The notes beneath the pieces were generated by a model. It was not told where the DNA came from. It did not search any database and worked only from the letters and a program-made list of their open reading frames with translations. The position numbers and the translations under genes are program-made. From Candidatus Vampirococcus lugosii (lineage in GTDB: Bacteria; Patescibacteriota; Gracilibacteria; Absconditabacterales; Absconditicoccaceae), in NCBI RefSeq assembly GCF_018420025.1, contig NZ_JAEDAM010000010.1, positions 1 to 21,222 on the forward strand: DNA of 21,222 nt. Reading direction: 5' to 3'. Positions 1,266 through 21,016 of this stretch are shown one piece after another; positions within the stretch are counted from its first letter, which is position 1; each line of letters opens with the position of its first letter.

Positions 1266-1775
1266 ATGTTTAAACATATGGAAAAAAATAATAATGAAAT
1301 TAAAAAAAGAATATTTGTATTTTTATTTTTAATTATATATTTGTCATCTTTTTTGTTAAATAATTTTATATTTTTTTTGTGGTGAAATGTTTCTGCTTAT
1401 ACTCCCAAAGATACTAATAATAATTTAGTTGCTGTTTTGGTCGATTCAGATATTTATAATTGATGAGTGTGAAACGATATTAAACGGTATGCTCAAAATT
1501 ATATTCAATGATCTATTTCGGATAGTAAAGCTATAATAATTCCTGTTAATATTGATAATTTTACTGCTCCTGATATTGTAAAAATATTGCAAAATTTGTA
1601 TTTTGAATGACAAAAAGATGCACCTTCATCTTTGATATGAACAATTTTAATATGAGATATACCTTTACCTGTAGTTAATAATAATAAATTTATTTATCCT
1701 AATATTTTCCCTTATGTGAATTTTGAAAAAAATAAATATGTATATGATAATAATACTTGATTTTTTTGTAAATAA
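1266..1775 (+). CDS. N-terminal segment of the giant surface protein (signal anchor plus start of an alpha/beta domain), ending in a frameshift-induced stop
   Basis: The frame with position mod 3 = 0 runs ATG 1266 (alternative ATG 1278) to TAA 1773-1775 with TGA as Gly. It reads MFKHMEKNNNEIKKRIFVFLFLIIYLSSFLLNNFIFFLWGNVSAYTPKDTNNNLVAVLVDSDIY...LIGTILIGDIPLPVV...YVYDNNTGFFCK*. The basic N-terminus followed by a hydrophobic stretch of about 22 residues indicates a signal anchor. Confidence 0.7.
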
Positions 1776-4700
1776 TTGAAATAAAAGTTCTACTCCTGAT
1801 ATTTGGCATTGATTAATAAGATTTGATTCAAATAGTGAATATTCAGATTTCTTTAATAAATTAAAAAATTATTCATCTGATCCAGAATCTTATGTAGATA
1901 AGAAATTTTGGTTTGAAGATTTTGTAATGTTGCAAGATTATTTTAATGATCATAATCTTTCATATTATCTTAATAATTTTATTTTTATGGAAGATTTGAT
2001 ATATAACAGATATACAAATTTATTATTAGAGGTCTTACAATGAGGTTATATAAATAATCTTACTAAAAAAATAAATGATTTTGATTCTTGAATTGATGAT
2101 TTGAGACAGAGAGCAAATCAAAATATGGAATGAAAATGAGAAACTTTTAAAAATTTATCTGATGAATATTTTGATCAAGCTGAACATATATCTTCTTTTT
2201 TTGAAGAGGAAGAAGTAGCAAATGCAACAAAAGATTCATGATGAGTACCTACTTTGATGGTAAGAGAAAATGTAGAATCATTATTTAAGTCTTATAATGA
2301 AGTTTTTGGTCAAACATATTTTTCACAAATGAGAGATAATGTTTTAGCATCTTGAAGATGGGATACTGAAGATTTATGAAGTCATGTAGATAAAATATTT
2401 GTTCAAGATCAAACTTCTCAAGAATTCTTATATAGTATTAATGAATCATTGGAATCTGCTGTTGATGAACAAGTGGCAGAAGAAGAATATTATATGACTA
2501 TTCCTGTCCCTAGTTTTTATATAGAAGATGAATTTGAAGAAGATAAAAAAGAATTTGAAAATTTTTATTTTGGTAAAGCACTTACTGAAATAATTTCTGC
2601 TCAAGATTTTTCAATATTTAATTGAAAATTTGGTAATTATTCTATTGAAGATTTAGATTCTTATTCTTTACAAGATCGTGAAGAATACGAACATACTCAA
2701 TCTATTGGTTCTACAACTTGAATTTTGGATGCTCAAGTTATAGCAAGTAGATGATATAATTTGTCTATTGCACAAGAAGAATATGACCTTTATGAAAATA
2801 CAAAAAGATGATGAGAAAATGAACAAGAACGGGCAGAAAGACGATGGTGATGAGCATCTCCTCTAAATCTTGATTATGATCAATTTCCTGATTATATTCT
2901 AAAATCTTTTGATAGATATAATACTTGGAATCCATATTGGAATAGAAATATATGATGAACTATATATGATGTAGCTTGATCTATACAAATTGATGAAGAA
3001 GAGGAAGAAGCTTATTCATACTTATGATATCCTAAATATTCTACAAATGTAAGAGTTAAAGAAGATGATGAAGAAATAGAATATATAAAAAAATGAAATA
3101 CTAAAGTAAATAAAATAAAAGAATATTCTGAATTAGATTTTTTTAATGTTTATACAAAAAAACCTCAAGATTTTAATACAGAACATTTTCCTTTGCCTAA
3201 TATGATTCCTCCTAAAGAAATGATAATCGGTCTTCATAATGCTGAACAAGAATTTTTTGATTTTGAAAAATGATGAACAGAAATTGATTATATTGATCCT
3301 AGTACCGTAGTATGATCTTGAACTTATAGTGAATGATATTCAATTTGAACTTTTGAATGATTAAAAGATGCACATTGATGAAGTTCTAATTGTGTTGATA
3401 ATTCTTCTTGTCCTTATGTTTGAGATCATAGAGCTGATGAATTTAATGATTGATTTAATGATTGATACAATAAATGATTTGATTATATGAATTGATATTT
3501 GGATTGAGTTTCAGATTGAGAATCTGATATTTGATGAACAAAATATGATTCAAAAAATATTCCTGATTGAGCTTCTTCTGATTATGTTCTATGATATGAA
3601 GAATGATATGAAGATTGATATCATGATTGACTTTTGAAAAAATTTAATTCTGAATGGGATGATGTAAAAAATGAACATGATTGAGTGTTTGATCCATTTA
3701 TGTTTGGTATGTCAGATGAATTTGATATTAATGTTTTGGGTTTGCCAGATCCTGATATGATGGATATTTATAATTATTTTTATGATACTATAGAAACTAG
3801 AGTTTATAATAAATCTGTAACTAAAGAAAATCTTTTGTTAAAAACTCTTACTACAGTAAATAGAGCAATTGATAGTTTTAGAAATATGACATTTAAATGA
3901 GTTTGATGAGATGTAGTAGAATTTTTCTATCCAAATGTTTTTGAAACAGAATTATATAATGATTTATGAGATACTTTGGAACTTAAAGATTATGATTCTA
4001 TAAAACCTGCTGTTGAATGATATTTAAAATGAAAAGTAGATGAGTATAATGATATATTAAATGAAAATTGGGATAATAGATTATTTGAATATTCTTCAAA
4101 TATGATGGCTTATGATTTGCTTCATCAATATGATCCTATGGCTATGCCACTTTATCATGATTATGAATGAATGTGAACAACTCCACAAGCATGTCATTTT
4201 TTTGATGATGATTATGAATATGTAATTTGGCAAATTTCTGAATATGATGAATCTTATATAAGAAATGATATGTTAGATCTATTAGCATGAGATGTTAATT
4301 ATTTTAATACTTACCCTAATAGAAGTTGAGATTGAACGACTCATCCTGATGATATTGATGAGCGACCTATAGAAGATGTTGTTGAATATATACTTGATAA
4401 TTTTAGTTTTAAAATTGATTATTTAAAATATCATTATGCATCTACTTATCCATGAAGAGTTGCTTGACAACTATCAAGTGATTTAAATTATTATAATCAA
4501 TCTGGTTGTTATACAGAACATAAATATGAATTATTTGAAGAAGATCATTTTATAGATACATTATGAGATGAAAATATACAAAGAATAGTTGATAATTTAT
4601 ATTATATTAATATGTGATGGTCAACTAGAACTAAACAAGATAATGTACTTGATAATTTTGATCAAATAAAAAAAGATTTTAATATTGATGAAAAAATAGA

Positions 4701-7700
4701 ATATATATTAGATATGCATTTGGAAAATGATGCAAATGATGATATTGTCTCAAATCCTAATTATTGACAAAATGGTTATGAAGTATGATTTATATCTTCA
4801 AATTGAGCTGATAGTGTTTATTTATGAGCAGATGATGAATGATATTGAACTTCATTACCAGATGATCTTAAAGATTTACAAAATGCTATTTCTTCATGAA
4901 AATCTTGATCTTCAGGTGAAGATTGATTTGATGATTTTAATATAGAAAGTAATTTATCTACTATGCTTTGATATTCAGAACTTGAAGAACAGTGTTGAGT
5001 TCCACCTGGTTGAGCAGTAGATCTTTGGGAATGGCCATCTGCTTTTACATGTTGGTTAAATGAAACATTATCCAAACCTGTTTCAATAGAGTTTTCAAAT
5101 TCTTGTACTATGGGACCTAGTTTTGAAGATTTATGAGAAACTTATGATACTGATTTTTATTCTTCATCTTGATCTGATTGAGATTTTAGTAGTGATGAAG
5201 ATGATTGAGATGATAAAAGTTTTGCTGATAATAGTATTTATTGAAATTCTTGATGAAAACTTTCAAATATAGAAATTGAAACTCCAACTGATACTTTAAT
5301 TAAATGATGACAATTACCTATACAATTAAATGCTTTTGATGAAGATACTAGACCAATGTGAATGACAGTTCCAACTTATACTTTGTCAATTCAAGATGAT
5401 GAATGAAATGTGCTATGAAATTTTTTGGCTTGATGAAATTCTTTTGAAAAAATAAATGTAAGTAATTTTAATTCTTATTATTTATTTGATAGTTCAGATA
5501 TTCCTGATAATTTAGATTCTGTAAATATAGTTTTGGAAATTGATCCTTTTTATGAAAATTTTGATTATCCTCAAAAGATTGAAAAAACTATAAGTCTTCA
5601 ATGAGTTTCTTGACCTAGTTTGGAAGATATAGAATATACTTTACCTAACTCTTTAGATGAAATTTATAATCAAAATGATTCTTGAAAACCTATTCCTATA
5701 GAATCAAAACTTATTCCATATTCAATAAATATATGATCTAGTATTTCTTCTCCAGTTACTGTTTATTCAAAAGATAAAACACTTTTGGCTTGAGAAATAA
5801 AATCTAATTGAGAATTTGAATTTAAAGAAAATTTTGTTATGGAAAATTGACAATTAGATTTTTATCTTCATCCAAGTTTTAAAGCTTGAGAAGATATTTT
5901 GATAGTAGATATTCCTTGAATTTGAGAATTAAATGCTAATATTTTGATAAATCCAGCTTCTATATATTCTTTGAATTTAAGTGTTGAAAATCCTTCTGTA
6001 GATGCATGAGATATTAATATTTGAAAAGTTGTATGAAAAGACTATTGGTGAAATGATGTAAAAAATTGAGGTAATATATTAGTTGAAGTAAGTTGAAATG
6101 CTACAATTCAATGAAATAAATCTACTACCGTTAATTCATGACAAAATTTTCAAATTAATACTGATAAACCTGGTGGTAAAGTTTATCTTACTGCCAAAAT
6201 AGATTGAAAAGATTTGGAAACTTATATTCCTGATTATATATCTTTTTTGGTTAAAGATACTACTTGGTGGGAAGAATGAAAAGATATTAATGTTATGTAT
6301 TTAAGTCTTTTTGGTTGAGATTGGGGAAATCAATGGGGATATTTTTCTGATAATAATAAATTTATGCAAAAAATGTTTTCTAGTTCTTCAAAAATGTTGG
6401 CTTCTACAACTATGCTTGTTGATCCTGAAAATATTAAGAAATTTAAATATATAGTATATCCAGATCTTAGTATAAATAATGTTTGAAATTATAAAAATAA
6501 TATTTCTATAGATAATTGAAATATTTATGCTAATTTATATCATAGAAATTGAAATATTTGAAAAATAAAATTATTATCTAATTCTGCTAATATACAAGTT
6601 TCAAGTGATTGATTTACTACATTTAGTTCAGATTGAATTTATTATGTTCCTGATAGTTTAGATTATAGAATTAATTTAAATGAATTTAATGATTGAACTC
6701 TTTTTATAAATAATGAAGAAGTTTTAAATTTACAAAATTGATTTATTCATAATGATTTGTCAATTTCTCTATCTGATAATTTTGAAAAATGAAAATCTTA
6801 TTGGGAAGTTAAATACAAAAATATAAATGTTTGAAAATTATTTTTTCATAAAAATTCTAATACTTATTCTTATTCTGATATAGAAAATTATGAATGACAA
6901 TTAATTACCGATATGTTTGTTTCTTGAAGTACTAATAGAAAATGATGAGTTTGAGTTTATGATCCAGATTCTAAGTTTTCTGAAACTAAATCTTATGATA
7001 GTATTGAACATTCAGATGATGAAAATAAAGATATTGGTACTAGAAATAATTTTGCTAATATTACAAGTTTTGCTAATTGAAATAATGTATGAGATGCAAG
7101 TAAACATTTTGCTTCTGAATTTGTAATTAATTTTGGTGATCCAGTATTATCAAGAATTGATAAAAATGATATTATTGATAATACAAATTACGATTCTTGA
7201 ATTTGAAAAAAAGTTTTTTCTGAAAGTAATGAAAGTATATTTAAAGTGTCAGATATAAATTATGATAGAAGTTGAAGAAAATGATTGGCAATTGCATATA
7301 GAAATTGAACAGTTAGATTATTAAAAAATTATGGTTGAGATGAACCTTTTGTTGATATGTGAGATCTTATAGTTCTTAGTGATTGAATAAAAGATTTTTA
7401 TGTATGAGATACTAATTGAAATTGATATGATGATATTATTGCCGTTACTAATAAAGATAGAATAAGAGTATTTGAAAATAATGATTGAATTATTCAAGCA
7501 AATTGAACTCCTGTTTGTTTAGATGTTCCTGGTTGACCAGAAGATTTTAGTATGGTAAATCAAATGTTTATTGAAGATATGAATTGAGATTGAACTGCTG
7601 ATATTGTTACAGTTGATAAAAATTGAGATATTAAAGCTTTTTATGATGGTTATCTTTCTGATTGAAAACTTTCTTGTCAAGATTGATGGCAAGATAATTT

Positions 7701-10700
7701 GGAACAAGAATTAATTGAAAGTTATGGTTTAAAAATTACTGATGAAAAATTTTATGATGATAGTTTGATGCATTGGAATACATTGGTAAATGAAAATGTT
7801 ATGGAAATTGATTTGGATGATGATTTATGTAAAAGGGATATTAATGCATTACAAAAATATATGAATCTAATTGATTCAGATAGTTATTGAACTAGAAATC
7901 AAATACAAAATATGATTAATTCTGAAAAAGATCTTACTAGTAATTTGAGTTATTATGATTTTGGTGTTTTTGATAATTTTAGGAAACAATTTGATATTCA
8001 AAATCAAATGTCTAAACTTTATATGATTGCTCAAGATGAATGAGAAACAGAATTTTTGAGAAATATTGAATATTGTCTTCCAATATCAAATAGCTTTAAT
8101 CATACTATTTGTGAAAAAAGTGAATCTGAATTAGAATCTTTATTTGAACAATATATTGATGATTGACAGTTTAATTTGGCATTAGAAGTAGCTTTTTGTG
8201 AATATGATGAAGATATTTGTGATGAAAATAAATCTTTTGAAGAATTGATGCAAGATTTTGATGAATATGTAGAAAATGAAGAAAATGAAGATGCTATTGA
8301 AGTTGTATCTTGTACTTATGATGAAGATTTTTGTGATGAATATACTGATGAAGAAATTGAAGAAAATATGAAAAATCTTGCAAGTCAAGATGATGAAAGA
8401 CTTTATTCAAAATTTTTGGCATGTAAAACTTATTTTGACCACTATGATATATCTGGTATGTTTGGTGATAATTTTTTGGATGAAATAAAATATGAAATGT
8501 TGTCAAATGAATTTTTACCGATGTATTATAATCAATGGGATGATGATTTTGTGTATTATATTAAATCAAAAAGAGCTTGATTAGATGATGTAGATGAAAT
8601 TGAATTTTATAAAAATTTTGAAGCTGAAAATGAAGATATACAAGCTTGAGATGAAATAACTGTAAATATAAATATAGTAAATAAATCAAATAAAACAATT
8701 AAAGCCACATATTTGGAAAATTTGATGTGACCTTGGTCTATACTTAGACAAGAAGATGATAGTATATATTGATTTGATTTATGAGCTTTAAATGATGATG
8801 TTGTTATAAAACGGAATAATATACAACCATATCAATTTCAAATTGATAATATAAGTTTAAATCCTTGAGAAACTAAAACTTTTTCATTTCCAGTTATTTA
8901 TCAATGATTTGATTCTTTAAATGTAGAATTAGATACTATATGAAGTAATTGATGAAATTGATGATGATGAAATTGATGATGATGAAATTGATGATGATGA
9001 AATTGATGATGATGAAATTGATGATGATGAAATTGATGATGATGAAATTGATGATGATGAAATTGATGATGATGAAATTGATGATGATGAAATTGATGAT
9101 GATGAAATTGAGGAAATTCAAATCCTAGTCTTAAAGTTTATTCAGATGATCAGTGTATGCAATGATATGATTTACATACTAATTCATGATGATGATTTTC
9201 TTCTGAATTTGTAAATACTGGTCAAGAATACGAAGATTGGTTAACTGAACAAGAAGAGCTTGCACAAGAAGTTTATGATGAAATGGAAGAAAAAATGCAA
9301 GAAATTAAAGATTCTGGTGATCTTGATAATTTTGATTATATAGAGTCAATGAACTCTCGGTCAACTAAAAATGTTTTAAATTCTGATAATCAAATTAATA
9401 TTGATATTTTTGAATGAAGTTTATCCGATAAGTGGAGTGATTATGAAACTATAGTTGATGGTTTATGTGGTTGATATGATTTTTCAGATTCTAGTTGTGG
9501 TTTAAATATTCCTATAAATAGGGCATTTTTTGCACCTTGATTTTATCAATCTTTTGTTTGTGTGCCATTGCTTGATAGATGACTACCAGTTTTTTGGCGG
9601 CCAGGTACAGCACGGAAGAGTTGAACTCCAGTTCCAGTTCCTAATGGAGCACAAAGTTTAGATGATCCTATACCAACTTGATGAGTTTATCCGTCTGCTG
9701 TTAGATTTTATGTTTCACCAACTTTGACAGGTAGTTTATGATTTGCTATTTGTGTATGATCATATACAGCTTGAATGACTATTCCGCCTCCTATGTGAGT
9801 TGTTTCTTGAAATTGTGTTGTTACAGCAATTAGTTTACCTTTATCTTGTGATAATGATGAATGAAATTGATGATGACAAGATCCAGATTGAAATCCATCA
9901 GATGCAGTTGTTGCAGATTGGCAATTTGATATGTACAAAAATGGTCAATGTAATGAAGATTTTTGACATTGAGATAGAAAAACATCACCAGCAAGTATAT
10001 GATCTACAAAAAACAATATTCCATGAGATTTATCATGAGAATATCTTTGATGACTTATTAATTTTGAGACAAAACCTAATAATGTTAATTTATCAAGTAT
10101 GGCGGATAATATTGGTTTGGACACTACTGAAATTAAATGAAAATGATGATTTACTTTAAAAATAGAATGATGATCCGTTAGAGGAATTATTCAATGTATT
10201 ATTGAAAAATGGATAGATAAACAAATAAGATATATTATAAATAATCTTACACAGATGACTATCTATATTTATTTACCTGATCTTAGTCAAGTAAGTGAAT
10301 GATTTGAAAAAGTTAATATTGAAAATTTTACAAATATTATTAGTGATGTTAATAATAGAATTGATTGATTATTAAATTCTATGTCTAATCCAGAATCTCC
10401 TATTGATTATTTACCATCTCAAGAAGTATATAGAAATTTATCTCAAACTGCTAGCAATCCTTTTGATGCTATATCTACTTTATTTAATGATATACCACTT
10501 ATTAATTTTGAAACAAGGAATATTTCTATACAAGTTCCTATGATATCATCTGAAGAAATTGAAAGATATCTTACTTATCTTAATTGACGGTTGGATAGAA
10601 ATAAATGAATAGTAGAAGAATGGACTAATATAACTGATAATGTTTCTATATGAGTCGATGCTAATGAACTTATAAATTCAGTAGAGAAAAATATAAAAAC

Positions 10701-13700
10701 TTTACAAGAATATAAAGATTTCCCAGCAAAATTATATGATTATATTCATATAATAGATAGATATCTTGCAGAATTAAGTTGTATAATAGAGACTTTTATA
10801 AATTGAATTGTTAATCGGCTTGAACAAAATGCAGCAAGATTTGAATCTTGGGTAGATTTTATTATTTTAATGATTGCTGTGATAGAAACTTGGCAAGTTT
10901 TGATTGATTTTTCTGTAAATTGGAGACAAAAATGTGCAGAATGTAGAGTAGATACTTATGACTTTTATTCTTGTGCATTAGGTTTGTTATGTATAGATTT
11001 ACCAATATTGCCTATACCTCCATTTAGACTTCCAGACATTATAATTGATTTATCTCATATTGATTTATCTGTAGATGTTTTATTACCAAGATTTAGATTT
11101 GAACCTATATCTGTTCCTTTACCAGAAATTCCAGATATTCCAAGACCTCCATCTGCTAATTTAGATGTAATTTTACCTAGTATACCAGAATTACCAGAAC
11201 TTCCTGAATTACCAGAAATACCTTCTTTTTTACCTACTATAGAAATAGAATTACCTTTATTGCCTCCAGCTCCTAAAATTCCTGAAATTCTTCCTCAGAT
11301 TGAAGTTATTGTTGATATTGCAGAATTTATATGAGAATTGTTATGTATTATTAAAGCATGAATTGGTATGGTTGCTGAATGGAATGTTAAAACTAGAATT
11401 GAGCAACTTACACAGAGAACAACTAGGGTTGATCCTTTTGATTCTTTAAAAACTACATTTCCAGATCCTCCATTGAAAGGTTTTGATATAAGAATTGATA
11501 GTTTTGTTCAATTACAATTTGAATTTGAAGAAATATATAATTTTGCAAAAGATTTAGCTGATCAAATAAATGAGCAAACTAATAAGCTTTGAGAATCTGT
11601 TCAAAAAAATAAAATTGAATTTGAATGATTTGAATGACTTGATGATTATGATAAAACTATTGATTTGAATTCTTATAATATAAATAAACCTGATATAAGA
11701 GAACAAGATAATTTATTTGCATTTGATGAAAGCTCATATGATTGAAGTATTCCTTATAAAAAAGCTTTTTCTTCGTTGAGAAGTTGACTTATGTATTTTT
11801 ATGAACAATGATATAACCTTGAAGCAACTCAAAAATCTAAAGATATAATTGATATGCTTGATACTGATACTTGAGTTAAACCAAATTATAAATGATTTGA
11901 TAAATTACAAAGTTCTTTTGATGAAGTGATTGAAAATGAATATGATTATTATGAAGATATTCTTTCACAAGTTTCTGATTGGGATTCATTTATTCAATCT
12001 TTAGATTCAAATCTTTTGATAAATAATTCTTATGAAAAAAATTATTCATTATGAGTAAATTTGTTTGATTGAAATCAAGATATAGTTGATAAAATATCTT
12101 CTCAAAAAAATCCTAAAGCTGAATATTTGGATATGAATATGCAAATAGTAGATGGTATGCAAAATGCTTTGGCAAATAATACTCCAGAAAGTTTAAATAT
12201 GGACTCCAAAACATATAAAAAAACTAATATGTATCTATCATCACTTAGTGAAAATATAAAACAAGTGAGACCACATTTTGAAGATGATATTCCTTTATCA
12301 AATTGAAATTCTGCTCCACAAAATAATGAATCAAATTCTAGATTAAATCTATGAGATTCATGAGTGGAAAGTGTAGATCCTAGTCAATATATGAAATGAT
12401 TTTTTGTTCAATGAAATGATTGAAAATATCATAATGTTGTAAAATGGAAAGAAAAAGGTGATGAAATATTTAAAAATTGAAATTATAAATTTGTTGATAT
12501 AAATGCTGATTGATGAAAAGATATTATTTTATGGGATGATAGTAATGTTTATATTAAATATTATGATCAAGAAGATTTTCATAATGAATGAAATCCTAAT
12601 TATAATACTGATCTTTATGAAACATTTTCAAATTTTAATACAGTTGATATTCTTAAAGCAAGAACTAATGACGATTGATATCGTGAAATAAACTGAAAAC
12701 TTTATAAAATTTGGTCAGATGAATATTGAATAAATAATTTTAAGAGAAGTTGACAGACATTACATAATGTTAGTTTTGAATGGGATTCATATGATAATGC
12801 AGATTGATATCTATTAAAATTTACTCAAAGAGTAGATTTGTTCCATGAAAAATATGACTTTTCTTCTGATAGTTTTGAAGAAAAATATGTTCTTTTGCAT
12901 CCTGATTCAGATTTGAATGAACTTAATATAAATGATAAATGAAATTTAAATTGAAATATTAATGAAATTATTGAAAATAATGAAATAGTTATGAATAGAA
13001 CTTTTAAATCAGATTCAAAAAAATTGAGTATTACTTTGGATAATAATGCAGTTGATGATAGATGGAATTATATAAAGATTATACCTTTAAATTTGGATTG
13101 AAATCAATTAAGTAAATCTTGACCTCGGGTAAATCAAGAAGTTTGATGAGTTCAAATACGGTCAGATATAACTTCTCCTTCATTATCTCCTAATATGTAT
13201 AAATCTGAAGAATCAATTTCATCATTAGATGATATGCAAGATCAAGAATTAATATCTAATTGAAATTTTATGGTTTGATATATAAATACTAATTATGATT
13301 TAGTATTTGATTGGGAAGATGATTGAAATATAAATTCTATGTCTATATCTAGTGAATGAAAATCTTATTCAAGTTCTTGAGCTTGAGATAATTGAATATT
13401 TTGAAAAAATGTAATATTTGATGAAGAAAATAATGCTATAATTATATCAGATTTATTTATAGATCAAGAAAAAACTATAAATTATAATATTTGATCTGTA
13501 GATTCTGCTTGAAATATTTCAAATAGAAATTTACAAGTTAAAATAAAAGTTCCAAGTATTAAAATTGATTCTGTAGAATCAGATTGAACTGCTATTGAAG
13601 TAATGGGTAGTTTATCAAATAGTATTGATGAATGAAAAGTTGGAATACAAGTAAATAGAAATTGAGTATGGCAAGATATTGAATCTAGTCCAGATTGAAA

Positions 13701-14205
13701 TTATTTATTTGATTTGGATGAAAATTGAAAAACATATAATGCTTGAAATTTTGTTCAATCAGAACTTATATGAATGTATCATAATGAAGAAAAAATATGA
13801 AATATTGATATAGAAAATGCTAATATTAAAATATTTGATGAGTTTGAAGATGATTATGAAACTTGAATTCATTTTAGAAATTCTGTCCCTACTATTTTTA
13901 TAAAAAATGATAATTCAGAAATATTTAATATTGTATTACCTATATCCGATTTGATTGATGTAGAAACAACTAGTTGAGATTATGAAATTAATCAATTGTC
14001 AGCTCTATATTCATGTGTTTATAGTAAACAAAATAATGATTGTGTTATTTATTATGATATTAATTGAAGAGTTGTATCAAATTCAGATTATTATATTACT
14101 TGAGAATATAATTTAAAATCTAATGGACAAATTGAATATTATATATATAATAATGAATGAACTAAAATAGTTAACTTTTTATTAGAATTATGAGATTTTA
14201 AATAA
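1714..14205 (+). CDS. Giant acidic exported/cell-surface protein (main body, about 4,160 codons) with FG-GAP/VCBS repeats, a poly(NGGGG) linker and a Pro-rich module; function unknown
   Basis: Line-by-line hand translation shows frame 1 (position mod 3 = 1) has no TAA or TAG from 1675 to TAA 14203-14205. By extrapolation from hand-counted lines it contains a few hundred TGA codons. The six frame-1 pieces in the supplied ORF track (3685, 7699, 8176, 10381, 10870, 11368) are collinear fragments of it. The first in-frame ATG is 1714 (others at 1738 and 1744), but the real N-terminus is probably 1266 in the upstream frame. Joined length is about 4,312 aa. Confidence 0.85.
1761..1767 (+). other. 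T7 homopolymer at the frame change between the two pieces of the giant gene
   Basis: Removing one T turns tga ttt ttt tgt aaa taa into tga ttt ttt gta aat aat tga, which joins frame 0 to the 12.5-kb frame-1 ORF without a stop. Confidence 0.6.
8947..9111 (+). repeat. Perfect 15-bp tandem repeat (aattgatgatgatga)x10 with partial units at both ends, encoding (NGGGG)n
   Basis: There are 10 exact units at 8956-9105, with partial units at 8947-8955 and 9106-9111. In frame the tract reads G S N G G (N G G G G)x10 N G G N S. Confidence 0.95.
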
Positions 14206-14235
14206 AAATATTTTAAATATTAATATAAATTATTT

Positions 14236-15036
14236 ATGAAAAAATATATATTATTTTGATTAGTATTTATTTTTGGAACTAATTTAACTTGGTGAGCTCT
14301 TTCTATTCCTTATGATTGTTGAGTTGTAAATCAAGAAAAAGATAGATATATGGAAATGTTTGAATCATTAGATAATGATATTTTATCAGAAGCTGAATTG
14401 GAACTTGCTTATGATAATCTTAAAGATTTTTGTTGTTCCAAATCTTATCTTGAAGATGATTGCGATTCTTGAGAGAGTAAAAAGTATCCTGAATCTCCTT
14501 ATTTATATGATCATATTGTAGATATATGATTTAGAAAACTTGATTGAGAAGAAGAACTTTTGTATGATTGAGTTGAACTTGATGAAAAATGACAAGAACG
14601 AAGAGAAGAAATAAGAGAATTGGCAAATAGTGAAGATATTGTCTCTCCACAAGTTATTAATAATACATTTGATCAATATTGGGATGTATGATGAAGTGAT
14701 TGAATGTATAGAAAATATCAATTACTTTGTAAAGAATCTTGACTTGTTCAAACTAAAGTATTTAGTATTTTTTCAGATGATACATCAGTTTCTGAACTTA
14801 CTAATGCATGTAATTGAATGTTGCAAGATCGTGTAGATAGAGAACTTACTTATGTTAAGTCTTTGATGAATGTTAGATGAGATCATTTTATGACTACTAA
14901 TTTGATAAATTACACAGATAAATATTTTGCAAGAAATAGATGAATAAGTTTATTGGAAAAGCTTGTACATTTTGAAGCACTATTATTACAAGTTACAAAA
15001 AAAGTTAATGAATGAACTCCTCAATGTTCTGGTTAA
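14236..15036 (+). CDS. Secreted Cys-containing protein of unknown function (266 aa)
   Basis: Frame 1 runs ATG 14236 to TAA 15034-15036 with TGA as Gly, checked codon by codon. The N-terminus MKKYILFGLVFIFGTNLTWG/ALS looks like a Sec signal peptide. The gene starts 30 nt after the giant-gene stop. I recognise no family. Confidence 0.75.
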
Positions 15037-15064
15037 ATTATTTATTTTGATTATATTTTAGTAT

Positions 15065-16471
15065 ATGAAAAAATTTATATTATTATTAATAATACTATAT
15101 AATATTACTATAAATAATATTTATGCATCTGATGAAGCATGTTTCAATACTCATCCAGAAATTAATGAATATATTGATTCTATGAGAGAAGTTATAAATA
15201 GTATTGAATGAAAAGATTTTTCTTCAGAAGAATTGTGATGAGATAGTATATCACAGTTTGGGCAAGGATTTTCAGATGTTAGTAGACAACTTTTAAGATG
15301 AACATATATGTCAGCTATTGTTATGAAAAACATAACTTTGGATGCTGTTTGATGACAATCATTTACAAATTTAAAAATGATTTTTAATTCGGGAGTTGCT
15401 ATTAGAGATTGGAAATTACTTTTGTATTTGGAAAGAGATCTTTCAGATAAAGCACCAAAAATTTGATATGCATGAATTCTTGGAGAAAAAATTAAAAAAG
15501 ATGAATATGAACAATATCAAGAAATTTTGGAAGAGATATATATTATTGATAAAATATCGTGATGGGACCAGAATATTACTTATTCTGATCTTTTACAATT
15601 TATTTGGAAATTTAATACTTTTTATAAAGAAATATATTTGGATGCAGTAGGACATAATAAACCAGATTTTAGCTTGGAAGAAATGGCAAATAAATTATTT
15701 AGAACTACAAAACTTAAAGTAGCAGAAATAAATAATGATGAATATCAAGAATTTAAAGAATATTATAGATTAGCAGTAGGATCAGATAATATTTGTGAAG
15801 ATAATTATTCAGAAAAGTTTTTGGAAAATATACAAAAAATTACTTGAAATTCTGCATTTGATTGATGATCAGCTTTGGATAAATTTTCAGAATCTTGGCT
15901 TTTACTTCAAGAAGTATTGAATGATGTTAGAAGTTCTTGAGAATTAAGTAGAGAATATGAAGAAAGAAAAGAAAAATTACTTAAAAGACATTATGGAACA
16001 ACTTTGGCAAATGATTTAATGTCTTATGAATGAACTTGGTGAGTTGGTATGACTAGAGATACTATTAAAAATGAAGTTTTGGATCCATTAGTTTCTTTTG
16101 TAGATAAATTGGAATATGTATCAAAAACTACCGAAGCAACGGATGAAGTTACTAAAGAACAAGTTGAGGAAAGTTTACAAAATAAACAATCTCGTGCAGT
16201 TGCAAAAGAAGCTTTTAGTGCTGAAATGACAAATACTTTTGATACAATATTAAGTATGCAACAAGAACAATTTGTTGAATCTACATTACAAGATCCTAGA
16301 CCAATTACTCATGAAATTCCGTTTTTAAGTAAAAGAGTTTATGAATGAGTAAAAGTTTTATGAGATAGATGAAATGCTGATACTATCATTTATAATCTAG
16401 GTAATGCATGTCAATATCAATGTGTAAATCATTGAAATCCTTATTCTGATTGTTGGTATGATAATAAATAA
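15065..16471 (+). CDS. Secreted protein of unknown function (468 aa)
   Basis: The mod 3 = 2 frame runs ATG 15065 to TAA 16469-16471, checked codon by codon. It contains the track ORFs 15638 and 16049. The signal peptide is MKKFILLLIILYNITINNIYA/SDEAC and the C-terminus is Cys-rich (NACQYQCVNHGNPYSDCWYDNK). The gap to the previous gene is 28 nt. Confidence 0.78.
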
Positions 16472-16499
16472 GTTATTTATTTTAAAAATAAAAATAAAA

Positions 16500-17741
16500 A
16501 TGATAAATAATTTCTTTAAAAAATTTTATGAAAAATATTTTAGTTATGTATTTTGGTGATTATTATTAGTTTTTGTAGTAATATTTTTTGTATTATTTTT
16601 TAATAAAGAAAATATTACAAATGATGAAAAAGTTGTTGCTCAATGAGATGACTCTAATATAAAATCTCATGATTTTGTAAATATTTTAAATAAAAATTTA
16701 GCGGATAAACAAATTACTAATAAGAAATGACTTATAGAAAATTACTGTAATACTATATTTAGTGATGAGCTTGAACTTATTGATTGATTTCAAAATATGA
16801 CTTTTTATTATACTCCTAAAAAATCTATTTTTTTACATGCATTATGTTCTCATTTGGAAGATTTTGATGAATCAAAATTTGATGAAACTTTTTTGAATTA
16901 TATTAATGATTGATATTTGGATGATATTTTGGACGAACCAGCTTGTGAATATGATGAAGAAAATGATATGAGTTGATGTAGATTTTCTTATTTTTTGCCA
17001 AAAATATTTTGAAATATTATAAATGAAGTATCAAATGTAAAATTAGCTAGTATATTAGGTATTTCTGATGAAGATATAGATGATTCAATTGAAGAATTTT
17101 CAAATATTTATTTTTGAGAATCTGAAGATATAGGCTGTGATGGTAAATATTATTTATATAATCAAGATATTGATGATTTGGAAACTATGCATTGTCAACA
17201 TCCAGATACTTATGAATATTTTTCCAAATATTTACAAGAGATATTGGAACTATTAACTTCTTCAAAAATATTAAATCCTTTTGAAATAATTGAAGCAGAA
17301 GTTGAAAATGAAGAATGTCAATTAAATTTTGATTCTGATTTAATTGTTTGTTCTTTACTTACTAATGATTATCAACGGGAAAATTTAAAAAATTTATTAT
17401 TGAATGAATTAATGTTTTATAATTTATTTATTACATATTTTCTTCAAAATTGAGATAATTCTTCTGTTACAGAATTTAAAGTTTGAGCAAATATAAGTGA
17501 TAATATTAAAGATTTATGAGCAGAAATAAAAGCTCTTGAAAATGAAATCTCAGTTTCTCAAGAATCTATAAATAGAACATGGGATATGTTGCAAAATATT
17601 TATTTTACTTTCCCAACTCATATTTGATTTATGGCTTATAGAGAAGATTTAATAAGATTTAGAAATGAATTTGCAAAAGTTTATACTCCTATTCATCAAA
17701 TGTATTCTAGATTTAGGAATGTTCAAGATACTAGAAGATAA
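16500..17741 (+). CDS. Signal-anchored (type II-like) acidic Cys-containing protein of unknown function (413 aa)
   Basis: The mod 3 = 0 frame runs ATG 16500 to TAA 17739-17741, checked codon by codon. It contains track ORF 17178. The N-terminus MINNFFKKFYEKYFSYVFWGLLLVFVVIFFVLFFNKEN provides one TM helix. The gap to the previous gene is 28 nt. Confidence 0.78.
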
Positions 17742-17767
17742 GTTTTTTATTATATAAATTAATAATT

Positions 17768-19681
17768 ATGAAAATAAAAATAAAATTTATTTTATCATTG
17801 ATATTAATTTCTCCTATGTTTTCCAATTCTTTTTCTTTAAAAGAATATTACGAAGATGAAACAAAAGATTATGATCAAGATTCTTTGCTTGAAGATCATA
17901 ATGAAAGTTCTTTTTTATGAAATATTTATACAAATTCACATAATTTGGTGAGAGAAACAAAATTAAAATCTGAAAAAGATAGTTTTTCATATGTTGTTGA
18001 TTATCTTTCTGATATGTATTCTTGTAGTGTATCTGAAGATGATATTTATAATATTTATTCTGTGTCTAATCCTTCTTTTGTTTATATTCAATCTTGAATG
18101 GATCCAGATTCTCAAATAAGTACTGATAAAGATGATTTTATAGAATCTTGTAAAAATGTAGTTAGGTGTTTCGGTGACAATAATGTGGATGCTATTGAAT
18201 GATATACTCAATCCACTAGAAATTTATGTACTAGTAAAGTAAATAGTATAGTTAATTCTTCACAAGATAATATAAGTAAAAATGAATCTATAAAATATGA
18301 TAATTCTTGATCCGATATGTTTATGAATTGAAGTTTGGAAAATAGTCCTTTTGATTTATTAGTTGATATAAAAAATATATGAGACACTCTTTTTGAAGAT
18401 AATGAAGAACCAGAAGAAATTAATTTTTATGAAACTGATTCTTGATGAAATTCAGATTGATCATCTTGATGAGATCAAACTTTATTAAATAAAACTTTAT
18501 TAACTCAAAATTTATGAAATAAAACTTGATTAAATTCTGGTTTATTGACTACTAATTTGTTAAATTCAAATTTATTAGCTTTAAATTCATTAAATTGAGA
18601 TTGAGAAAATCAAATTCCTAATGATTCTGTTTCAAATGGTTTAATAAATAATTTTGTTTGTAATGAAAATATTGATATAGTTAACCCAGAACAAATTTAT
18701 GAACAAACTAATAAAGATATAAATCAAAATTTAGAAGATATATCAAATGCACATGATGATCTCGTATCACAACTAACACAAAATGTACCAAGTAATGATA
18801 TAGATTTTGCATCAGACTGATCAGCTCAAGCTCTTGATAATTTTTTATGAAATCAATTTGAAGAACAATGATATGCAATTACTAATCCTGGTTGATGAAA
18901 TTGAACTTGAGATTTAACTTGAACATCTCCATCTCCTATTGATGGAATTGATCATAATAGTTTTGTTTCAAAGATAGGTTGAATGTGATTAACTGATTGT
19001 ATTAATGCATGAGATAAAGATAGTATATTTTGGATAAGAGTTTGTATGGTATATACAGAAACTACTTGAATAGTTGATCAAAAAACTATTATGGCAAGTG
19101 AAGAAGCAGTAGATGAAATTAATAATGTTTTATTAAATTTGAAAAGGACCTGATCTATTATGAAACATAAAAAAACTGATGAAATGCGGGAAATTGGTCT
19201 ACAAGATATAGAATTTAGTAAAATATTTGCTTTTGATTTAGTGTTAAAAACTAAACCAACATTTCCTTGAGATGGAAAATATAAAGAAGAAGCAAGAATA
19301 GCAGTTATTGAAGAAAAAAATAAAGAGTTTGAAAAAAAAATATTGAAATTATCAGAAAGTCCTGATCTTAAATCAGAAAAAAATAAATATTTAGTAAGAG
19401 CAAATCCAGCAAGGATGGAATGAGAAACTAGAGCTTGATGAGATACTTCAAATAGACAATGAAATATTGATTATTTGTCTTCTTCTCAAGAAGATATGAA
19501 ATTAGATCATGAAAAAGTATCATCAAATGAAAATGAATCTTCTATGTATGAGTATATGGATATTTTCCATTGATTTATAGAATTTAATCATGATTACTGG
19601 GAACAAAAAAATACAACTTTACATTCAATTGAAGATATATCTAGATGATTTAAAGAAAGAGTTGTTAGTTGAGGTTGATAA
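17768..19681 (+). CDS. Secreted protein of unknown function with a Leu/Asn pentad array (637 aa)
   Basis: The mod 3 = 2 frame runs ATG 17768 to TAA 19679-19681, checked codon by codon. The signal peptide is MKIKIKFILSLILISPMFSNSFS/LKEYY. The gap to the previous gene is 26 nt. Confidence 0.78.
18479..18598 (+). repeat. Eight imperfect 15-bp (pentapeptide) units
   Basis: In-frame reading of 18479-18598 gives TLLNK TLLTQ NLGNK TGLNS GLLTT NLLNS NLLAL NSLNG. The period is 15 nt and Leu sits at fixed positions. Confidence 0.5.
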
Positions 19682-19763
19682 AATAATTATAGAAAAATTT
19701 GTATTATTTAGTATATATGATATACTATATATAAATTTTATTTATTATATGTTTATTATAAAA

Positions 19764-20069
19764 ATGAAAAAAGAAGATAAATTTAAAATAGAAAAATCTT
19801 TATTCTTAAAACAAGAAACTAAAGATAAATTGATTAATAATTGGGAAAAATTAGACTCTTTTACAAAATATAAAATATTAAAAAAAGTAAAAGAATCTTC
19901 AGATTTGGAACATAAGTTATTTAATGATTTTTTTGAAAAAAATAAAGAGCCAGAAATTTTAATAAAACAGAAATTAAATAAAATAAAACAAAATCAAGTA
20001 AGAAAAATAGAAGAAATAAGTAGTTTAAATGCAGATTTAGAAATAGAAGATAAATTAAATAATATTTAA
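19764..20069 (+). CDS. Small Lys/Glu-rich protein with no signal peptide (101 aa)
   Basis: The mod 3 = 0 frame runs ATG 19764 (alternative 19749) to TAA 20067-20069. It reads MKKEDKFKIEKSLFLKQETKDKLINNWEKLDSF...ADLEIEDKLNNI. This is the 3' part of track ORF 19590..20069; the track's 5' extension overlaps the previous gene and looks spurious. It contains no TGA and no Gly codon. Confidence 0.6.
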   Translation: MKKEDKFKIEKSLFLKQETKDKLINNWEKLDSFTKYKILKKVKESSDLEHKLFNDFFEKNKEPEILIKQKLNKIKQNQVRKIEEISSLNADLEIEDKLNNI

Positions 20070-20089
20070 TATTTAAATTTAATATAAAT

Positions 20090-21016
20090 ATGTGATTTTG
20101 ATGATTGAGAGAAGAAATTAGAAGTAGCTTTGGTCTTGATGAACAAGAAGAAATTAAAAACAATGAAGAAAAAGAAAATTGACAAGAAAAAAATGAAGAA
20201 ATTGATTATTTTGACTTGCCAGAAGAGGTAAGAGAAGAACTTGCTAATGATTTTTTTGAAAATGTAAAAGATAAAATACAAGCATCTCAAGATGATATTA
20301 AAAAATTTGCAGAAGAGGAAGCATGATTGTTTTGATTATGAGAACAAAAAATAATAAATGAAATGAATCAAGAGATAATGGATTTTGTAGTACAAACTAT
20401 TTCTTGAGAATGATTTGATTCATATCAACTTAAAAATTCTTTATCTATAGATGATTATTTAAATAATTTAGATCAAGGTATACAAGAATTAATAGAAACT
20501 GGTTCCAAAAGTGATTTTGAAATATCAGATAATCTTAAAAATGAAATTAGAAATTATTTATGATGAGATAGTATTGATATTTCAATAAATGAAGCATTAA
20601 ATTCATGAAATGTGGAATGATTAGATGAATTACAATTTTCTAAATCTAATATAGAAGAGTCTTCTAATTTAATTTTTGAAAATATAAAAGATAAAATACA
20701 AGCATCTCAAGATGATATTAAAAAATTTGCAGAAGAAAATGCATGAATGTTTTGAGCATGAAAAGAAAAAATAGCAGATGAAATGAATCAAGAGATAATG
20801 GATTTTGTAATGCAAACTATTTCTTGAGAATGATTTGATTCATATCAACTTAAAAATTTTAAAAATATAGATGATTATTTAAATAATTTGGATAAAGGTA
20901 TACAAGAATTAATAGTATATGGGAATATAAATGATTTTAAAAATTGAGAATCTAAAAAAGAAGATGAAAAATGGGAAGAAGAATATTACTCATGAATTTT
21001 TAATCGTAATGAATAA
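20090..21016 (+). CDS. Acidic protein with an internal 140-aa tandem duplication and no signal peptide (308 aa)
   Basis: The mod 3 = 2 frame runs ATG 20090 to TAA 21014-21016 with TGA as Gly, checked codon by codon. It reads MGFGGLREEIRSSFGLDEQEE... and starts 20 nt after the previous stop. Confidence 0.7.
20253..20495 (+). repeat. Copy A of the intragenic duplication (period exactly 420 bp)
   Basis: 243 bp align without gaps to 20673-20915, with about 21 mismatches by hand count (about 91 percent identity). It encodes FENVKDKIQASQDDIKKFAEEEAGLFGLGEQKIINEMNQEIMDFVVQTISGEGFDSYQLKNSLSIDDYLNNLDQGIQELI. Confidence 0.9.
20673..20915 (+). repeat. Copy B of the intragenic duplication
   Basis: It encodes FENIKDKIQASQDDIKKFAEENAGMFGAGKEKIADEMNQEIMDFVMQTISGEGFDSYQLKNFKNIDDYLNNLDKGIQELI. 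The offset from copy A is exactly 420 nt, so the reading frame is preserved. Confidence 0.9.

Follow-up and report, generated by a model that had tools for sequence, protein, structure and literature searches.

In Absconditabacteria/SR1 and Gracilibacteria/BD1-5 the codon UGA is recoded from stop to glycine (NCBI translation table 25; Campbell 2013 and Rinke 2013, as cited in PMC8629427). This recoding has been described for both the Absconditabacteria and the Gracilibacteria (PMC8629427, PMC8080830), and the glycine meaning was validated by proteomics (Hanke 2014, PMC4032931, as reported in PMC6851277). Some proteins of Vampirococcus lugosii, located in the membrane or at the surface, are giant and carry adhesion domains such as DUF11 and integrin; a role in host attachment has been proposed for them (Moreira et al. 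2021, PMC8080830). A PTD tripeptide repeat in a surface protein of Gracilibacteria was reported to be hypervariable and hard to assemble (Sieber et al. 2019, PMC6851277); the repeat exceeds the reads in length, its place in the protein, which is predicted to be extracellular, is a coil region, and slipped-strand mispairing is discussed as its cause. Here we describe a tandem array of a TGA-rich 15-bp unit in a stretch of 21,222 nt from Candidatus Vampirococcus lugosii (NZ_JAEDAM010000010.1, assembly GCF_018420025.1, positions 1 to 21,222, forward strand), which we call the window and which has a GC content of ∼24%. The array lies within a giant open reading frame (ORF), and the features that define it are as follows.

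8941..9111, + strand: Gly/Asn tract of 57 in-frame codons (44 TGA, 12 AAT, 1 AGT), residues 2423-2479 of the ORF starting at 1675
8956..9105, + strand: 15-bp array, ten exact head-to-tail copies of AATTGATGATGATGA, with starts at 8956, 8971 ... 9091
9112..9120, + strand: non-repeated end of the Gly/Asn-rich segment, GGA AAT TCA (G-N-S), with the segment's only GGA glycine codon
9181..9195, + strand: degenerate copy of the unit, AATTCATGATGATGA (N-S-G-G-G), 70 bp downstream of the tract
1675..14205, + strand: giant ORF bearing the tract, 4177 codons with 295 TGA and no TAA or TAG before 14203-14205

The tract is probably a real in-frame 15-bp minisatellite in the gene for a giant exported protein, with TGA read as glycine, a recent origin by slippage and a Gly/Asn spacer as its product. 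The use of TGA in the window resembles table 25 recoding in that in-frame TGA occurs at the frequency of glycine and aligns with glycine in homologues, the genome is low in GC, and the closest loci come from Gracilibacteria-type metagenome-assembled genomes (MAGs). The difference is not one of kind; TGA is the dominant glycine codon here (83%), and 44 of them are packed into one short tract. Like the PTD repeat, the array is an in-frame tandem repeat in a surface protein of a code-25 candidate phyla radiation (CPR) bacterium, although the PTD units are 9 bp long, come in several synonymous variants and contain no TGA, whereas the window units are 15 bp long and identical, with TGA making up ∼77% of the codons of the tract; the PTD repeat alone comes with population data. 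The protein resembles the Vampirococcus giant proteins in its length of ∼4300 amino acids, its signal-peptide-like N-terminus, its FG-GAP repeats, its DUF11-like domain and its place in the same broad clade. That likeness is one of size and domain content, and the core domain of the window protein matches no curated family. With engineered (Gly4-Ser)n linkers the tract shares the G4X periodicity and composition and a position between folded modules, although it has Asn in place of Ser, is written with a recoded stop codon, is natural and is apparently very young. Natural NGGGGNGG Gly/Asn-rich repeats are also present in a standard-code cyanobacterial haemagglutinin-like protein (P0001).

The tract and its reading frame

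In the frame of the giant ORF, for whose definition TAA and TAG alone were counted as stops, positions 8941-9111 read TGA AGT AAT TGA TGA AAT (TGA TGA TGA TGA AAT)x10 TGA. With TGA as glycine the peptide is G-S-N-G-G-(N-G-G-G-G)x10-N-G, which consists of G, N and S only and holds no hydrophobic residues. An earlier note on this DNA (the original prediction) had claimed 44 TGA codons among 57 and ten exact 15-bp copies, and our recount in the ORF frame gives the same figures; it had also let the tract end in ...N-G-G-N-S at 9111, and although that peptide is right, the codons GGA AAT TCA lie beyond this position, at 9112-9120. Tandem Repeats Finder places the array at 8950-9111 with a period of 15, 10.8 copies, 100% matches and a score of 324. 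The exact period-15 run (8950-9111) is 162 bp long, and a partial unit stands at either end of the array. Elsewhere in the giant gene, 57 consecutive codons include 12 TGA at most, and the corresponding maxima in its orthologues are 8-14. When the AATTGATGATGATGA unit was sought with at most one mismatch, 11 matches were observed, against a mean of 0.11 per shuffle in 100 dinucleotide-preserving shuffles of which none reached 11 (0/100).

Two units (30 nt) of the repeat DNA also occur in six metagenome contigs of the Joint Genome Institute (JGI; L010-L015). These contigs are unrelated and AT-rich, and none of the six is a related locus. In each of them (6/6) the AAT/TGA frame runs into TAA or TAG beside the repeat, and the +1 frame is a long standard-code ORF reading acidic (DDDEI)n. 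Because the same DNA encodes (DDDEI)n elsewhere, it is the reading frame and not the nucleotide motif that decides its meaning, and all six contigs speak for reading the window repeat, too, in the +1 frame, as acidic (IDDDE)n. In the window, however, TAG closes the +1 frame a few codons before the first unit (AAT TAG ATA CTA ...), orthologue-conserved sequence flanks the tract on both sides in the TGA frame, and the acidic reading would require two compensating frameshifts. The upstream TAG and the conserved flanks rule this reading out, and we give it next to no chance; they are also the reason why the window peptide is (N-G-G-G-G)n.

Folding of the tract as RNA gave a weak repetitive two-base-pair ladder (z = -2.4), which is not treated as structure. 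We note that 12 Asn-Gly dipeptides arise from the tract (window 8941-9120). Asn-Gly is the dipeptide most liable to spontaneous deamidation and isoaspartate formation, and through this deamidation the tract spacer may be chemically short-lived outside the cell.

TGA as a glycine codon

The tests of TGA described here are independent of the tract. Codon usage was taken from nine forward-strand ORFs of the window, comprising 6914 codons, of which TGA makes up 6.05%, all GGN codons together 1.23% and TGG 0.85%. Read as glycine, TGA brings the residue shares to 7.3% Gly and 0.85% Trp; read as tryptophan, to 1.2% Gly and 6.9% Trp. TGA accounts for 418 of the 503 glycine codons (83%) and is present in eight of the nine ORFs, with none in 19581-20069.

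To keep TGA from influencing the alignments, it was masked (written as X). Against the four orthologues described below (L001-L004), window TGA pairs with Gly 120 times and with Trp three times, the next partners being Ser, Asp and Asn, and window TGG pairs with orthologue Trp 115 times. Against 52 standard-composition homologues, masked TGA meets Gly in 695 and Trp in 11 of 2524 cells, with a Gly background of 5.5%; at the 34 well-covered TGA sites Gly holds the majority at 11 and Trp at none.

A segment of the giant gene upstream of the tract provides a further test.

7249..7674, + strand: FG-GAP (integrin-type) repeats, in which the conserved glycines of DxNGDGxxD motifs are TGA codons

Residues 1859-2000 translated with TGA as glycine match the Pfam families FG-GAP_3 (37.9 bits, cut-off 26.9) and FG-GAP (22.7 bits, cut-off 22.1), and the glycines of three DxNGDGxxD-type calcium-binding motifs are written as TGA. 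Translated with TGA as tryptophan, the same residues have no Pfam match. FG-GAP is matched in the homologues P0063 and P0065 and in a fragment of L009 as well; a Pfam search with the whole giant protein gave no hits.

TGA is thus confirmed as a glycine codon in the window, by codon usage, by the orthologue and homologue alignments and by the Pfam test, and not by the tract. The original prediction had taken the tract as direct support for this meaning. The meaning holds, but on tract-independent grounds; the tract is not direct evidence, as the identical repeat reads (DDDEI)n in six other contigs. That TGA might instead be tryptophan (code 4) or a stop, with the tract as NWWWW x10 or non-coding, draws on the fact that public gene callers used code 4 for many relatives. 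The tryptophan reading is refuted by the residue composition it would impose, by the masked alignments, which pair TGA with Gly and not with Trp, and by the loss of the FG-GAP match; the stop reading is refuted by the conservation of the ORF, as it would put 295 stops within a conserved 12.5-kb frame. We regard both as having virtually no probability.

There is no marker gene in the window, and the nearest loci belong to MAGs labelled Candidatus Gracilibacteria (L003) or 'Candidatus Peribacteria', where TGA is a sense codon too. Two further claims about the tract, that it places extreme demand on a suppressor-derived tRNA and that it forms a barrier to transfer and heterologous expression, can be set against these counts. 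The first was overstated, as TGA is already the preferred glycine codon and the tract merely uses it. The second is true of the genome as a whole, but the tract adds nothing to it, given 251 TGA codons in the giant gene outside the tract and the presence of TGA in all but one of the nine ORFs.

A second group of codons also departs from the table. Reassignment of CGA and CGG to Trp has been predicted for Absconditabacteria and some Gracilibacteria (PMC8629427). In the comparison with the L001-L004 giant ORFs, CGA stands opposite Trp in 24 cases and never opposite Arg, CGG opposite Trp in 46 and Arg in three, and AGA opposite Arg in 485. Both codons appear to mean Trp in the giant gene of the window and in L001-L004. 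The giant ORF (1675-14205) contains nine CGG and two CGA, and its table-25 translation probably carries ∼11 wrong residues through them.

Insertion of the tract at a domain boundary

Species-representative genomes were scanned with a TGA-free stretch of 175 amino acids, which gave four orthologous giant ORFs (L001-L004), all from Gracilibacteria-type MAGs and with TGA:GGN ratios from 286:32 to 158:105. Identity to L001 and L002 is 50-53% along the whole giant protein. A HMMER search with the database fragment P0004, a JGI fragment recovered by profile search, returned 426 clusters, with many proteins of 3500-6000 amino acids. By composition the family falls into two groups, one with 4-8% W and less than 4% G, from code-25 genomes translated with code 4, and the other with normal W and 5-10% G. 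Word-indexed protein searches gave low-complexity noise only when the tract was included and nothing when it was left out; searches of this kind with the Gly translation probably come back empty because the database entries of relatives carry W at TGA or are code-11 fragments. We note that many public entries of the family (P0007, P0009-P0017 and others) are translated with code 4, with 4-8% Trp, little Gly and strings such as WWWAWWTWWTWWTGWTGW.

The tract is absent from all five orthologous loci compared (L001-L004 and L009). Neither a stop nor an intergenic gap is seen at its site in any of them, the ORF being continuous throughout. In the five-way alignment the orthologues pass from the end of the upstream domain (e.g. 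'...VEIEVEDVDNNSLY') directly into 'DIKAFPTNGC...'; L009, which has 44% GC, 22 TGA and 130 GGN codons, carries an unrelated insert of ∼27 residues at this point, and L003 reads GTA AAT TGA TGA GCT (V-N-G-G-A). In 11 further family members the projected spacing is ∼0-16 residues and there is no Gly- or Trp-rich segment; a few of these values are slightly negative and one is 43, as a result of incomplete flank alignments. The site is thus variable in length among homologues. The nearest relative found is ∼50% identical, and its BLAST alignment restarts at residue 2481, directly after the tract. Gly-rich, TGA-encoded low-complexity segments are present elsewhere in related genes. With no difference between the units (100% identity) and no such tract in any orthologue or relative examined, these comparisons support a young, lineage-specific insertion, and the recent expansion that had been proposed for the array agrees with them.

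The insertion falls exactly between two conserved blocks of the alignment.

8626..8940, + strand: DUF11-like immunoglobulin (Ig)-type beta-sandwich domain, directly upstream of the tract
9427..11154, + strand: core of the protein family with the highest conservation, lying downstream of the tract and matching no curated family

The 105 residues before the tract form a module that is conserved in all orthologues and had been called CARDB-like. Neither the window domain nor those of the four orthologues match CARDB (Pfam PF07705). The window domain gives sub-threshold matches only, to BsuPI, Transglut_C and Arrestin_C, and by itself has no significant match to DUF11 (Pfam PF01345). Iterated profile searching brought up the equivalent domain in 43 homologues of standard composition, 26 of which match DUF11 (best E 1.6e-8), and hhalign of the window group against the 43-domain set gave a probability of 98.7%, although the set includes two fairly close relatives and the link is not fully independent. 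The domain of P0008, modelled with AlphaFold from the 43-sequence alignment, is all-beta with a predicted local distance difference test score (pLDDT) of 85, and this model supersedes one from a two-sequence alignment (pLDDT 55). Its Foldseek matches in the PDB are generic Ig-like only (integrin leg domains, the adhesin CLIPPER domain, macroglobulin and pilin domains), with E 3.6e-3 or worse and template-modelling (TM) scores of 0.45-0.59 among the better matches. On these profile and model comparisons the domain would be better labelled DUF11-like; the earlier label was apt for the fold class, an Ig-like beta-sandwich, but not for the family.

The downstream core is 64% identical to L001/L002 over 576 residues, and gave no match in Pfam, in NCBIfam (two homologues searched) or among PDB sequence profiles. 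Placement of the tract as a spacer between the beta-sandwich module and this core, also part of the original prediction, is borne out by the alignment with orthologues and relatives, and the composition and position of the tract are consistent with its being a flexible spacer. Beyond the core, a proline-rich PELPELPELPEIP segment (window 11200-11290, residues ∼3175-3205) follows an invariant Cys-rich hydrophobic block, WVDFIILM...CRVDTYDFYSC...LPILPIPPF, which is the best-conserved signature of the whole family.

Several points weigh against a genuine minisatellite in a functional gene. No sequence of the same species was found in genome, metagenome or protein collections to show variability, and a metagenome scan with the protein flanking the tract gave no relative. 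ARAGORN finds no tRNA, and hence no tRNA-Gly(UCA), in the window or in L001-L004 and L009, of which the loci only were searched. A run of seven T near the 5' end of the gene (T7, 1761-1767) shifts the frame, which could reflect consensus errors or a gene that is off or decaying. If short reads underlie the assembly, the number of units may be in error: the 162-bp exact run is longer than a typical 150-bp short read and the usual assembly k-mers, so that a de Bruijn assembler cannot fix the number of units. The run length and the hint of consensus errors in the same gene are what would favor the array or its copy number as an assembly artefact, that is, a collapsed, expanded or mis-joined repeat. 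Yet the frame is kept over the 171 nt, orthologues align with both flanks in that frame as far as the tract, and the partial units at the junctions are like the products of natural slippage; moreover, the AATTGATGATGATGA motif occurs elsewhere in the window as one degenerate copy only, which makes a chimeric join unlikely. An assembly error would at most touch the number of units and not the existence of the tract, and we consider an artefact unlikely.

The T7 run also raises the question of whether the gene is active.

1278..1775, + strand: true 5' end of the giant gene in a different frame, its N-terminus resembling a signal peptide; the two frames are parted by the T7 run at 1761-1767

The 5' ORF extends from 1221 to 1775, with a start ATG at 1266 or 1278. 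The N-terminus of its product is basic, then hydrophobic, ends in VSA-Y and, judged by eye, resembles a Sec signal peptide. The product aligns with orthologue N-termini through '...NNTGFF', after which the orthologues continue into the main frame of the window. The frame junction (window 1755-1779) is the T7 run itself, and T6 in its place would fuse the frames into one ORF of ∼4300 codons. The frameshift may be explained by an error in sequencing, by reversible phase variation, by a +1 translational slip or by a very recent inactivation. If the gene were inactive, as a pseudogene or in a phase-OFF state, the repeat would be a neutral or mildly harmful expansion free of selection; the signal-peptide-bearing 5' part is indeed out of frame with the other 4177 codons, and no orthologue or relative has a comparable insertion. 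However, the frame past the shift runs for those 4177 codons without TAA or TAG at 24% GC, and the protein is conserved along its full length, so that any inactivation would have to be very recent. The shift may at least as well be due to a sequencing error or to reversible slippage in the homopolymer, and we regard an inactive gene as improbable.

Other ORFs of the window can be described briefly. At least three of those downstream of the giant gene (window 14224-19681) have hydrophobic N-termini (14224-15036, 15062-16471 and 17735-19681). ORFs of like size (∼470, 415-440 and 640-680 amino acids) follow the giant gene in L001 (14280-20306) and L002 (10031-14974), which suggests, on ORF sizes, a conserved gene cluster. 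Upstream of the giant gene, an ORF at 250-978 has a transposase-like C-terminal motif (YSYRWLIEETYKYLKQ...), and the last ORF (20063-21016) contains an internal duplication of ∼100 residues (NIKDKIQASQDDIKKFAEE...QTISGEGFDSYQLKN..., with IDDYLNNLD.GIQELI twice).

Origin and meaning of the array

The tract is accounted for by code 25 together with minisatellite expansion in a gene for a surface protein, both of them known phenomena. The host would belong to the Gracilibacteria/Absconditabacteria group and have a low GC content (∼24%), with UGA decoded as glycine and serving as the main glycine codon, and the minisatellite would be carried by a giant exported protein of ∼4300 amino acids with FG-GAP and DUF11-like adhesion-type domains. 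Its seed may have been a short AAT-TGA-TGA (N-G-G) motif in an inter-domain loop, and the AAT TGA TGA of L003 is a plausible example of such a seed for slippage. The TGA run would have lengthened first, and the 15-bp unit would then have been duplicated by slipped-strand mispairing. The product would be a disordered Gly/Asn spacer of ∼57 residues parting the DUF11-like beta-sandwich from the conserved core, presumably flexible, tolerated at this site and functional as a spacer.

As a perfect head-to-tail repeat that lies within a gene and whose units keep the frame by their length, the array has the sequence properties of a coding variable-number tandem repeat (VNTR). Perfect arrays are prone to slippage, which makes VNTR behavior plausible by analogy and instability of the copy number likely. 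Contingency loci and VNTRs in bacterial adhesin genes arise by slipped-strand mispairing. The window resembles them in having a perfect short array with a unit that is a multiple of three, in a surface-protein gene that also carries a homopolymer frameshift; their defining property, in contrast, is variation between cells or strains, and the window tract is known from one sequence.

The tract leaves our knowledge of the genetic code unchanged, and the barrier to expression is already genome-wide. It does show what each choice of code makes of such a gene: a standard-code caller sees 44 stops in 171 nt, a code-4 caller sees NWWWW x10, and only code 25 yields a sensible Gly-rich linker. This bears on database quality, as many public proteins of the family carry Trp at TGA. 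If variable, the tract could be used as a strain marker.

For the organism, the tract would represent a very young change of length where two domains meet in a giant surface protein, one that probably takes part in contact with the host. A more speculative suggestion, which we think doubtful, is that the giant gene serves an episymbiotic CPR bacterium as a contingency locus, in which the array varies the length of the spacer, the T7 run (1761-1767) switches export and the 12 Asn-Gly dipeptides make the spacer labile. If that were true, a clonal population would vary both the reach and the expression of its host-attachment protein.

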